Source: Escherichia phage JN01. From it: DNA of 64,000 nt. The notes beneath the pieces were generated by a model that was not told the DNA's origin, made no database searches, and saw only the letters and a program-made list of their open reading frames with translations. Positions within the stretch are counted from its first letter, which is position 1. Every line of letters begins with the position of its first letter. The stretch lies in the sequence record MN882542. One strand, given 5' to 3'. Below are positions 13,620 through 15,335 of the stretch, piece by piece. The position numbers and the translations under genes are program-made.

Positions 13620-13696
13620 GCACCTATAGCCCAACTGGTAGAGGCAGCAGACTTAGAATCTGCTCAGTGTGAGTTCGAATCTCTCTAGGTGTACCA
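13620..13696 (+). tRNA. tRNA with TAG anticodon (Leu-decoding) but short variable arm
   Basis: Perfect anticodon stem GCAGA/TCTGC with loop CTTAGAA; 5 nt variable loop; A73; CCA encoded. Confidence 0.65.
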
Positions 13697-13703
13697 AATT
13701 AAT

Positions 13704-13779
13704 GCAGGTGTAGCAAAATGGTTATGCGGCTGACTCTTAATCAGTAAGACGATGGGTTCAATTCCCTCCACCTGTACCA
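13704..13779 (+). tRNA. tRNA-Lys (anticodon CTT)
   Basis: Paralog of the tRNA at 11996; anticodon loop CTCTTAA; CCA encoded. Confidence 0.65.
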
Positions 13780-13785
13780 AACATT

Positions 13786-13861
13786 GGGGATGTAGTTTAC
13801 ATGGTTAAAACATAAGTTTTGCAAACTTAAGTACAGGGTTCAATTCCCTGCTTCTCCACCA
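13786..13861 (+). tRNA. tRNA-Ala (anticodon TGC)
   Basis: Anticodon arm TAAGT-TTTGCAA-ACTTA; T-arm CAGGG-TTCAATT-CCCTG; CCA encoded. Confidence 0.7.
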
Positions 13862-13867
13862 ATTAGT

Positions 13868-13942
13868 GCATCCATAGTTTAAACGGGAAAATTACAGTCT
13901 TCCAAACTGAGGTTGAGGGTTCGATTCCCTCTGGATGCTCCA
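13868..13942 (+). tRNA. tRNA-Gly (anticodon TCC)
   Basis: Perfect acceptor GCATCCA/TGGATGC; anticodon loop CTTCCAA; T-loop GGGTTCGATTCCC; CCA encoded. Confidence 0.7.
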
Positions 13943-13949
13943 AATTAAT

Positions 13950-14025
13950 GCTCCTATCGTATAATTGGCTATTACGGTTGCCTTGTAAGCAACTTATCAG
14001 GGTTCGAATCCTTGTGGGAGCACCA
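13950..14025 (+). tRNA. tRNA-Thr (anticodon TGT)
   Basis: Anticodon arm GTTGC-CTTGTAA-GCAAC; T-loop GGTTCGAATCC; CCA encoded. Confidence 0.75.
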
Positions 14026-14026
14026 A

Positions 14027-14117
14027 TTCAGAGGTCAAGTGAAAGACCGCTGGTGTCAACTGAAGACCGTAACAAATTCCACGGAGTTGAGTTAGCGGCA
14101 CAACTTCAGACCTCTTT
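14027..14117 (+). repeat. inverted repeat AGAGGTC...GACCTCT enclosing GAAGACCG direct repeats (R-like)
   Basis: Shares the GAAGACCG core of the R-elements; lies between two tRNAs. Confidence 0.4.
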
Positions 14118-14120
14118 CAT

Positions 14121-14195
14121 ACTCGCTTAGTTTATATGGTAAAACATCACCCTTACAAGATGGAGAAAAAGGTTCAAGTCCTTTAGTGAGTACCA
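14121..14195 (+). tRNA. tRNA-Val (anticodon TAC), tentative
   Basis: D-stem GTTT/AAAC; anticodon loop CTTACAA with one mismatch in the stem; T-loop GGTTCAAGTCC; CCA encoded. Confidence 0.55.
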
Positions 14196-14196
14196 T

Positions 14197-14274
14197 GTTC
14201 CAGTATCCCAATTGGCAGAGGATGCAAGCTCAAACCTTGTACTAGTGACGGTTCGAATCCGTCTTGGAACACCA
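14197..14274 (+). tRNA. tRNA with CAA anticodon (Leu-decoding) but short variable arm
   Basis: Anticodon arm GCAAG-CTCAAAC-CTTGT; T-arm GACGG-TTCGAAT-CCGTC; A73; CCA encoded. Confidence 0.55.
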
Positions 14275-14279
14275 ATTTT

Positions 14280-14355
14280 GCAGGATTAGTTCAAATGGAT
14301 AGAGCAACAGTCTACGAAGCTGTTAATAGGGGTTCGAATCCCTTATCCTGCGCCA
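14280..14355 (+). tRNA. tRNA-Arg (anticodon ACG)
   Basis: Perfect acceptor GCAGGAT/ATCCTGC; anticodon arm ACAGT-CTACGAA-GCTGT; CCA encoded. Confidence 0.75.
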
Positions 14356-14373
14356 GATAAGTAAGAGTGATTT

Positions 14374-14616
14374 ATGCAAACATTAATCGTCGTTGAACAT
14401 GAAAATTCCAATAGCATTGAGTTTGTAAGGGTTCCCACTATAGATACCCACATTTTCTTGAAAGTAGGCTGGGAATGTGACCCAATAAGAGTAGAAAAAT
14501 TTATTGGTCATTACTTTGGTGGAAGACAACTTAAAAGTGTTAATTTTGAGACAATGTTACCAGAAAACTCAGAAACAAATAATAATGTTTACCTCCTTAC
14601 AAGGATTAGACAATGA
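14374..14616 (+). CDS. hypothetical protein embedded in the tRNA array
   Basis: 80 aa ORF with ATG start and AAGAG upstream. Confidence 0.45.
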   Translation: MQTLIVVEHENSNSIEFVRVPTIDTHIFLKVGWECDPIRVEKFIGHYFGGRQLKSVNFETMLPENSETNNNVYLLTRIRQ

Positions 14617-15170
14617 GATATTTGAAGTATGTTTCATGGATTTTCTTAGCTTTGCTAGAGCCATTTGCAGCAATCTTAGCAGTCATCTTAGCACCTTTTG
14701 TAGTTCTATTCTACAGTGAGAAGAGAGGACACTTACCTTTCGGCTTCAGATGGATGGAAACATATGACAACCCAATTGATGGTGATAAAGGTCATGTCGA
14801 ACGATGGGCTAAGATTAGAAAGATTGGTAAGCTTGGTATCTATATGCAGAGAGTTGGTTGGCTCTGGAGAAACAAAGCTTATAACTTCTCTTACCATGTG
14901 TTAGGAAGAGATGTAAAAGATGTTACTAAGTGGAAAGGTAATATCAATGTAAGTTCTAACCCTGAAGATAATCAGACAGGTTATCTCCTAATGTGGAACA
15001 GTAATGCTTGGGGATTATTCGCTTTTATCCCATCAATTAAACTCTTTGGTAAGCAATTCTACTGGAGAATTTATGTTGGATGGAAACTTAAAAGTGTTGT
15101 TCCAAAAGAAAGAGCATTCTCAAGGGAAAGAGTTATGTTGGCATTCTTTATTCATCCACTGAGAAAGTAA
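14613..15170 (+). CDS. hypothetical membrane protein (Trp-rich) embedded in the tRNA array
   Basis: 185 aa; N-terminal hydrophobic helix WIFLALLEPFAAILAVILAPFVVLF; ATGA overlap with the upstream ORF. Confidence 0.55.
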   Translation: MRYLKYVSWIFLALLEPFAAILAVILAPFVVLFYSEKRGHLPFGFRWMETYDNPIDGDKGHVERWAKIRKIGKLGIYMQRVGWLWRNKAYNFSYHVLGRDVKDVTKWKGNINVSSNPEDNQTGYLLMWNSNAWGLFAFIPSIKLFGKQFYWRIYVGWKLKSVVPKERAFSRERVMLAFFIHPLRK

Positions 15171-15178
15171 AGATTTAA

Positions 15179-15254
15179 AGGGGATTAGTTTACAAGGTTA
15201 AAACCTCGGTCTTTGAAATCGAAGAAGTTGGTTCAATTCCAACATCCCCCGCCA
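15179..15254 (+). tRNA. tRNA-Gln (anticodon TTG)
   Basis: Anticodon arm TCGGT-CTTTGAA-ATCGA; T-arm GTTGG-TTCAATT-CCAAC; CCA encoded. Confidence 0.65.
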
Positions 15255-15256
15255 AT

Positions 15257-15335
15257 GCTCCATTACTCCAATTGGCAGAGAGGCCAGACTTAAAATCTGT
15301 GTTATGTATCGGTTCGAATCCGATATGGAGTACCA
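15257..15335 (+). tRNA. tRNA with TAA anticodon (Leu-decoding), variable loop about 7-8 nt
   Basis: Acceptor GCTCCAT/ATGGAGT; anticodon loop CTTAAAA; T-arm ATCGG-TTCGAAT-CCGAT; A73; CCA encoded. Confidence 0.55.

Follow-up and report, generated by a model that had tools for sequence, protein, structure and literature searches.

Short-arm leucine tRNAs in the tRNA array of Escherichia phage JN01 and in unrelated phages

Escherichia phage JN01 (sequence record MN882542), of which we analysed a stretch of 64,000 nucleotides (nt; hereafter the window), carries three tRNA-Leu genes with the anticodons UAG, CAA and UAA that lack the long variable arm of a class II tRNA. According to textbooks, all leucine tRNAs have this arm except those of animal mitochondria. 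The three genes belong to a class-I-like form of tRNA-Leu that is common in phages, rare in cells and marked by a defined core signature, and they probably function as leucine tRNAs. The genes themselves are already known, having been annotated as tRNA-Leu since the genome paper of phage Felix O1 in 2010.

The three tRNA-Leu genes and their fold

The original prediction rested on hand folds of the window and offered two options, namely that the phage carries structurally unusual leucine isoacceptors or that the folds were wrong. ARAGORN and the Rfam tRNA covariance model (RF00005) both returned the coordinates, the anticodons UAG, CAA and UAA, the lengths of 77-79 nt and the A73 that had been read by hand. 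Since two programs reproduce the anticodons, loop lengths and A73, faulty folding can be set aside in favour of the first option, which is also supported by the orthologues in Shigella phage Sf14, where Leu again ranks first (PMC12482277). All three genes scored above the gathering score of 29 in the Rfam model (UAG, 57.3 bits; CAA, 43.6 bits; UAA, 47.5 bits; model positions 1-71), and the alignment to this model with Infernal placed the three anticodon loops exactly where ARAGORN did. Neither program proposed a differing anticodon loop, and ARAGORN, whose isotype names rest on the anticodon alone, called Leu in each case.

According to the ARAGORN drawings, each tRNA has an acceptor stem of 7 base pairs (bp) with A73 and an encoded CCA, U8 A9, a 3-bp D stem with an 11-nt D loop, a 5-bp anticodon stem with a 7-nt loop containing U33, and a 5-bp T stem with the T loop UUCGAAU. 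The variable loop, which had been described as short, measures 5 nt in the UAG tRNA, 6 nt in the CAA tRNA and 7 nt in the UAA tRNA (8 nt with the mismatched U43 counted), and none of the three has the variable arm of more than 10 nt forming a stem-loop that distinguishes class II. The neighbouring tRNA genes lie only 2-8 nt from the Leu genes, so there is no space for an overlooked arm. The Ser and Tyr tRNAs of the same array do have long arms of 15-21 nt (Table 1), as originally noted. At the core positions, A9, C12-G23, C13.A22, U48 and A59 occur in all three Leu tRNAs. The UAG tRNA further has A46, A37 and G1.U72, the last of which is shared with the UAA tRNA, and the anticodon loop of the CAA tRNA reads CUCAAAC, with C38.

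Support for this fold is comparative, coming from the covariance model and from covariation, and not energetic: unconstrained minimum free energy folding gave a cloverleaf for tRNA-Leu(UAG) only, and the z-scores of -0.16 to -1.6 are non-significant. In an alignment of 79 diverse short-arm Leu tRNAs, which includes the three window genes, 97.3% of stem cells were paired, a share inflated by the choice of the set with ARAGORN, which demands a cloverleaf. Double changes were found at 19 of the 20 pairs, with 612 compensatory cells, and the covariation score was 1.04 compared to 0.23 in shuffles and 0.15-0.20 in slid controls (37-47% pairing).

We parsed the E. coli K-12 genes leuW (UAG), leuZ (UAA) and leuX (CAA) beside the phage genes as host references. 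These canonical bacterial tRNAs are 85-87 nt long and have stem-loop arms of 13-15 nt, whereas the phage tRNAs are 77-79 nt long with loops of 5-7 nt. The two sets also differ in the core, with U8 G9 in the host and U8 A9 in the phage, G12-C23 replaced by C12-G23, a purine at position 13 replaced by C13, and a T loop of UUCRAGU (G59) replaced by UUCGAAU (A59). The host D loop RAAUYGGUAGA corresponds to CAAYUGGYAGA in the phage, of the same length and in the same register; the individual phage D loops are CAACUGGUAGA or CAAUUGGCAGA. Common to both are the anticodons, U8, A14, A15-U48, G18G19, A20a, G21, A22 and A73, together with the 3-bp D stem, the 11-nt D loop and the 7/5 geometry of the acceptor and T stems.

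The shared positions include those read by the charging enzyme. The determinants of E. coli leucyl-tRNA synthetase (LeuRS) are A73, A15-U48, G18G19, A20a and the tertiary pairs linking the D loop with the T loop; the anticodon and the long arm are not determinants (review PMC9976931). A minimal tRNA-Leu without the arm was still charged and edited in the studies that this review summarises (Asahara 1993/1998; Larkin 2002). Every phage variable loop ends in U, and therefore the A15-U48 pair can form, while the nucleotides for the G18:U55, G19-C56 and U54:A58 pairs between the two loops are present in all three sequences. Judged from sequence, all reported E. coli LeuRS determinants are present, and the sole missing part is one that LeuRS does not use.

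Table 1 Features of the tRNA array in the window. Lengths of the Leu genes include CCA.
Feature	Position	Strand	Length (nt)	Anticodon position	Variable region	Remark
tRNA-Leu(UAG)	13620-13696	+	77	13654-13656	UCAGU, 13664-13668	
tRNA-Leu(CAA)	14197-14274	+	78	14231-14233	ACUAGU, 14241-14246	
tRNA-Leu(UAA)	15257-15335	+	79	15291-15293	GUUAUGU, 15301-15307	
tRNA array holding the three Leu genes	10875-16530	+				25 ARAGORN tRNAs among small open reading frames (ORFs)
tRNA-Tyr(GUA)	11368-11455	+	88		15-nt arm	class II control
tRNA-Ser(UGA)	13275-13364	+	90		20-nt arm	class II control
tRNA-Ser(GCU)	16358-16450	+	93		21-nt arm	class II control

Occurrence and core of the short form

To place the three genes among other phages, the 77-nt UAG gene was used as query in a sensitive blastn search against 50,697 phage records. 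It found annotated tRNA-Leu genes far beyond its own family, with aligned lengths flanking the variable region that fit the short query. At nine loci analysed with ARAGORN, all had Leu tRNAs with variable loops of 5-7 nt, namely those of Mycobacterium phage Roots515 (Bixzunavirus), Streptomyces phage Elmer, Gordonia phage Forza, Cronobacter phage CR3, Pseudomonas phages phiPsa315 and 254, Enterococcus phage Bop, cyanophage P-RSM6 and a crAss-like phage. The phages with the short form include Otagovirus and Schiekvirus, and the Ser and Tyr arms in the phages of the nine loci measure 13-23 nt. A peculiarity of the JN01 lineage could thus be rejected, given that the form recurs in Bixzunavirus, in Streptomyces, Gordonia and Cronobacter phages, in a cyanophage, in a crAss-like phage and in others. 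Beyond the view of the original prediction, the window genes are one instance of a form common in unrelated phages, including those of Proteobacteria, Actinobacteria, Firmicutes, Cyanobacteria and Bacteroidetes.

The frequency of the form was estimated by scanning IMG/VR with AA[C/T]TGGYAGA-N9-YTNARR-N{14,40}-GTTCRA in two versions, which fix a Leu-type D loop (of one type only), a Leu anticodon and the T loop while leaving the arm length free. One of the two patterns was run on cellular genomes, with one genome per bacterial or archaeal species. The first 120 loci of each scan were listed, and all scan counts and percentages given here and below hold for the loci listed, with a variable loop of at most 8 nt counted as short. 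The AACTGG pattern returned 58 short forms among 135 viral Leu tRNAs and the AATTGG pattern 17 among 124, compared to a single one among 124 in cellular genomes (Fisher p=8e-19 and p=9e-5, respectively). Pooling both viral sets gives 75/259 (29%) against 0.8% in cells; IMG/VR holds prophages with host flanks, an effect that can only weaken this contrast. When restricted to loci with at least three tRNAs, which represent true phage arrays, the share of short Leu tRNAs was 71/153 and 23/123. Ser tRNAs at the viral loci were long in 105 of 106 cases and Tyr tRNAs in 46 of 48. The short form is therefore widespread, largely restricted to phages and nearly absent from cells.

Long and short leucine tRNAs also occur side by side. 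The AACTGG sample contained arrays with at least two Leu genes in equal shares of mixed, all-short and all-long composition (15 each). In Enterococcus phage Bop, a long-arm and a short-arm tRNA-Leu are neighbours (locus L007, 3825-3910 and 3993-4068). Where the arm is long, its modal length is 13 nt in viral and 15 nt in cellular Leu tRNAs. The sole short cellular case is a lone tRNA-Leu(UAA) with C12-G23, C13, A59 and G1.U72 on a contig of an Actinomycetes metagenome-assembled genome (CAVSTK010000009.1; locus L232, 4025-4099). Its neighbours encode an NDH-2-like oxidoreductase, a luciferase-like monooxygenase, carbonic anhydrase and Ppx/GppA; with housekeeping genes around it, the gene appears chromosomal, and its interpretation as a prophage gene is unsupported.

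The short form has a recognisable core. We compared 96-124 unique short-arm with 343-373 long-arm Leu sequences. Both forms share A73, U48, a 3-bp D stem, an 11-nt D loop and the six nucleotides A14, A15, G18, G19, A20a and A22; in the short form each of these six reaches at least 90%, U48 98-100% and A73 98% (122 of 124 short-arm phage Leu tRNAs). The differences lie at position 9 (A in 72% of short forms vs G in 99% of long-arm Leu tRNAs), at the 12-23 pair (C-G in 77% vs G-C in 99%), at position 13 (C in 88% vs G or A in 97%) and at position 59 (A in 62% vs 11%), and position 46 is a purine in 86% of short forms. Ordinary class I tRNAs of the same loci have A9 in 81%, a purine at 23 in 77%, C13-G22 in 71% and a purine at 46 in 88%.

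All three window genes carry this signature at 9, 12-23, 13 and 59 and have lost the class II core (G9, G12-C23, R13.A22). Their A9, purine 23 and C13 fit the class I frequencies, as does A46 in the UAG tRNA with its 5-nt loop. Class I tRNAs have variable loops of 4-5 nt and usually a D stem of 4 bp with C13-G22; in the window genes the 13-22 position is C.A, the D stem is 3 bp long and two variable loops measure 6-7 nt. By its nucleotides, the short form appears to be a hybrid, joining a class-I-type tertiary core to a Leu-specific D loop. The class II core (G9, G12-C23) is kept in 18 of 96 short sequences, which suggests more than one origin of the form; clustering is weak, with a short nearest neighbour for 70 of the 96 and mean identities of about 0.59 in all comparisons. 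A further feature is the G1.U72 wobble that tops the acceptor stem in two of the three window Leu tRNAs (13620/13692 and 15257/15331). Among Leu tRNAs, a G.U at 1-72 occurs in 39% of the short-arm viral genes, in 25% of the long-arm viral ones and in 12% of the cellular ones.

Among close relatives, 312 phage records match the 2.5 kb around the Leu genes at 90-97% identity; most are from Escherichia, Salmonella and Shigella Felixounavirus and related phages, and many annotate three tRNA-Leu genes. The tRNA array block is colinear at 90-99% identity in more than 200 Felixounavirus-type genomes. On this identity we assign the window to Felixounavirus (Felix O1-like phages). The 2010 Felix O1 paper includes genes for Leu(TAG) (78 nt), Leu(CAA) (78 nt) and Leu(TAA) (79 nt), and in a 2025 computational study of phage Sf14 the tRNAscan-SE isotype scores rank Leu first in the three orthologous slots (67.4, 49.1 and 60.2; PMC12482277). 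The word 'variable' is absent from both the Felix O1 paper and the Sf14 study, and 'arm' is also absent from the Sf14 text.

By blastn, 53 phage records match the UAG gene at 99% identity or more, and no blastn match to it was present in 5,426 complete E. coli genomes. It is matched at 90% identity or more in only about 90 of about 310 related genomes. In Salmonella phage UAB_69, the slot of window positions 13620-13696 holds a very different short-arm UAG tRNA between flanks that match the window (locus L372, 422-499). This gene (GGGAGAU UG ACG GUAAUUGGUAAA ...) has the variable loop UGUUU and is labelled tRNA-OTHER, pseudo. It looks as if one tRNA allele has been replaced by another at this slot within the genus, and such replacement may explain why so few relatives match the window UAG gene.

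Elsewhere in the array, the first tRNA-Met(CAT) called by ARAGORN (11128-11204) and the tRNA-Tyr(GTA) fall below the Rfam gathering score. The Felix O1 paper reports a low Cove score (28.9) for the corresponding Met and marks Tyr as a pseudo-tRNA. A tRNA-like element at 12597-12678 (+ strand) reaches 31.7 bits in the Rfam model and is left uncalled by ARAGORN even at a lowered threshold. It combines a 7-bp acceptor stem followed by ACCA with a normal T arm. A 5-bp stem whose loop is CUUCUAA (anticodon UCU, Arg) begins only 7 nt past the acceptor stem, leaving no D arm, and is followed by some 24 nt that include a small hairpin. The element sits between tRNA-Ile(GAT) and tRNA-Ser(TGA), where the Sf14 table has tRNA-Arg(TCT); it could be a tRNA-Arg-like gene that is rearranged or lacks a D arm, or else a pseudogene. 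A scan of the tRNA array for promoters and terminators gave counts not above shuffled expectation.

Function and loss of the arm

We propose that the three genes encode working leucine tRNAs that are charged by host LeuRS via A73 and the elbow and decode UUR and CUN codons, a reading that we hold with considerable confidence. Transcription would take place as part of the phage tRNA array, and processing would yield tRNAs ending in CCA, which host LeuRS would leucylate via A73 and the D/T-loop elbow (A14, A15-U48, G18G19, A20a) with no need for the arm. The UAA tRNA is predicted to decode UUA and UUG, the CAA tRNA UUG, and the UAG tRNA CUA and other CUN codons. Following arm loss, the core would have been refitted to class-I-type contacts (A9 with C12-G23, C13 and purine 46), with the D loop read by LeuRS retained.

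In E. coli the dominant leucine codon is CUG, for which the CAG isoacceptor is the major tRNA. The window has a GC content of 39%, and its 55 ORFs (15,921 codons) use UUA for 26%, UUG for 13%, CUU for 27%, CUC for 6%, CUA for 12% and CUG for 15% of leucines. With its UAA, CAA and UAG tRNAs, the phage would therefore supply counterparts of leuZ, leuX and leuW for codons that it over-uses relative to the host-dominant CUG, to the benefit of genes rich in UUA, CUU and CUA. For Leu[TTA] and CTA, the same codon-supply view has been put forward in the papers on Felix O1 and on Sf14 (PMC12482277).

Several observations weigh against functional leucine tRNAs of this kind. The anticodon loop of tRNA-Leu(UAG) (13652-13658) has C32, A37 and A38 where host leuW has U32, G37 and U38, and G37, the site of m1G37, is found in 93% of cellular CUN-reading Leu tRNAs. 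Among Leu tRNAs with NAG anticodons, the share with G37 is 93% in cells, 70% in long-arm viral and 48% in short-arm viral tRNAs. C38 of the CAA tRNA disrupts the A36-A37-A38 motif; A37 and C38 may give these tRNAs modification and decoding properties different from those of the host. The top pair of the anticodon stem in tRNA-Leu(UAA) is a C27.U43 mismatch, and in Sf14 the isotype margin of the UAG tRNA is thin (Leu 67.4 vs Ile2 65.7; PMC12482277). The LeuRS identity rules derive from experiments on E. coli tRNA-Leu and not on phage molecules. Our evidence consists of gene structures, identity nucleotides, covariation and distribution, from which we infer transcription, leucylation and decoding. 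To these points are added the energetic folding results and the inflated pairing percentage described above.

Two other readings deny the genes a role as working leucine tRNAs. Decay into non-functional pseudogenes by deletion of the arm could be argued from the pseudo label of the UAG-slot gene in UAB_69, from the two other tRNAs of the array flagged as pseudo in the Felix O1 paper and from the non-significant fold z-scores. The UAB_69 gene is, however, a different allele and not the window sequence, and all three window genes are intact, have an encoded CCA and are conserved over hundreds of genomes. Decaying pseudogenes would not show so many double changes or identity positions that hardly vary, and strong compensatory covariation in all four stems would be unexpected under neutral decay, which makes this reading scarcely credible. 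It is also very improbable that the tRNAs combine a Leu anticodon with another amino-acid identity and serve recoding, mistranslation or a role outside translation. There is a precedent for this in allo-tRNAs with Leu anticodons and Ser identity (PMC5389517), the class II hallmark is absent from the three tRNAs, and the Ile2 and Lys models score nearly as high as Leu for the Sf14 UAG orthologue (PMC12482277). However, all known E. coli LeuRS determinants are present and conserved over about 100 divergent copies, Leu scores highest among the isotype models for each of the three orthologues in Sf14 (PMC12482277), and the acceptor/T split is the canonical 7/5 and not the 8/4 or 9/3 (12-bp branch) of allo-tRNAs. 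There is no G3.U70, and the missing long arm precludes recognition by seryl-tRNA synthetase (SerRS; PMC9976931).

If the genes are working leucine tRNAs, the simplest reading of the missing arm is its loss through relaxed constraint, in which phage tRNAs would be free of whatever cellular role preserves the Leu arm. Bacterial tyrosyl-tRNA synthetase (TyrRS) uses the long variable arm. The arm is likewise used by SerRS, as its major identity element (PMC9976931). Because LeuRS needs no arm whereas SerRS and TyrRS use one, arm loss would be open to Leu alone, and on account of this use the arms of the Ser and Tyr tRNAs would have persisted. The shorter arms of long-arm phage Leu tRNAs (mode 13 vs 15 nt) fit relaxed constraint. 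An adaptive reading likewise takes the three to be working Leu tRNAs and departs from the first solely in the reason for arm loss: the short form would go unseen by effectors that dock on the class II arm, giving the phage a private, defence-resistant means of leucine decoding. Candidates for such effectors, of host or phage origin, are tRNases, nucleotidyltransferase toxins and modification or decay factors. The enrichment in phages over cells with the same pattern (29% vs 0.8%) and a core that looks actively refitted and not decaying are in keeping with adaptation, as is the behaviour of an AbiEii/MenT-family toxin that anchors on the long variable loop: tRNA-Ser is no longer modified once this loop is removed, and tRNA-Met becomes a substrate when the loop is grafted onto it (PMC11541572). 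Human SLFN11 is reported as specific for type II tRNAs in the title of a reference cited in PMC13056530. Phage tRNAs are known to depart from host tRNAs in ways connected with nuclease evasion; in the UAG tRNA, three anticodon-loop positions are unlike those of leuW.

Against adaptation, the literature searched yielded no bacterial effector that targets tRNA-Leu through its arm, and MenT3 favours Ser over Leu (PMC11541572). A bacterial Schlafen, considered as an arm-specific nuclease, was rejected, since the tRNAs that it cleaves are those for Lys, Met, Ala and others and it shows no preference for class II (PMC13056530), and this characterised case counts against adaptive arm loss. The Ser and Tyr tRNAs of the same phages keep their arms and would still be exposed to an effector that reads them, long and short Leu tRNAs are mixed in many phage arrays (15 mixed beside 15 all-short and 15 all-long among the matches listed), and the trend towards shorter arms in long-arm phage Leu tRNAs is what relaxed constraint would produce. 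We therefore consider adaptive arm loss unlikely. Its broader version, in which short-arm, core-refitted tRNA-Leu is a distinct phage-restricted class and arm loss a general device of counter-defence or host discrimination, is a speculation that we regard as rather doubtful. If arm loss does protect from arm-reading toxins or nucleases, it would represent a new mode of phage-host conflict over tRNAs.

Implications and known systems

No description of a short-arm phage tRNA-Leu was found in the full-text literature, which leaves subscription-only papers uncovered and an earlier notice possible. For a tRNA specialist, the finding should be moderately surprising, and it agrees with the known biochemistry of LeuRS. 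It provides a natural, conserved and covarying exception to the long-arm rule for tRNA-Leu, and an evolutionary replicate of the laboratory result that bacterial LeuRS needs no arm. The comparison of the two forms shows which core positions are altered when a class II tRNA turns class-I-like (9, 12-23, 13, 46 and 59) and makes the role of the arm in cellular tRNA-Leu directly testable, with mixed arrays as natural material on the purpose of each form. The signature could flag phage-derived tRNAs in metagenomes, and the genes could serve as compact natural Leu scaffolds in tRNA engineering. For annotators, the form is a warning that short-arm Leu genes are not to be labelled pseudogenes.

The only natural arm-less tRNA-Leu stated in the review cited above is that of animal mitochondria (PMC9976931). 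Like the phage tRNAs, it has its identity on A73 and A14 and is charged without an arm; unlike them, it is organellar, is read by the LeuRS of mitochondria and is floppy in structure, with different contacts (PMC9976931). In the phage tRNAs, the D loop is of the bacterial Leu type and the T loop is canonical, and charging would be by a bacterial LeuRS. An animal mitochondrial origin of the genes was rejected, as the window is 90-97% identical to Felixounavirus genomes.

Other phage leucine isoacceptors encoded in tRNA arrays are of class II, among them tRNA-Leu(UAG) of phage T5 (85 nt, 13-nt arm) and tRNA-Leu(UAA) of Bop (86 nt, 15-nt arm), the latter in a phage that has one of each form. The engineered or selected arm-less tRNA-Leu of E. 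coli is aminoacylated and edited by LeuRS provided that A73 and the tertiary contacts of the D and T loops are in place, the very features that the phage genes retain, according to the studies cited in the review (Asahara 1998; Larkin 2002; via PMC9976931). Those molecules are laboratory constructs, whereas the phage genes are natural and maintained, and carry the compensating A9, C12-G23 and C13.

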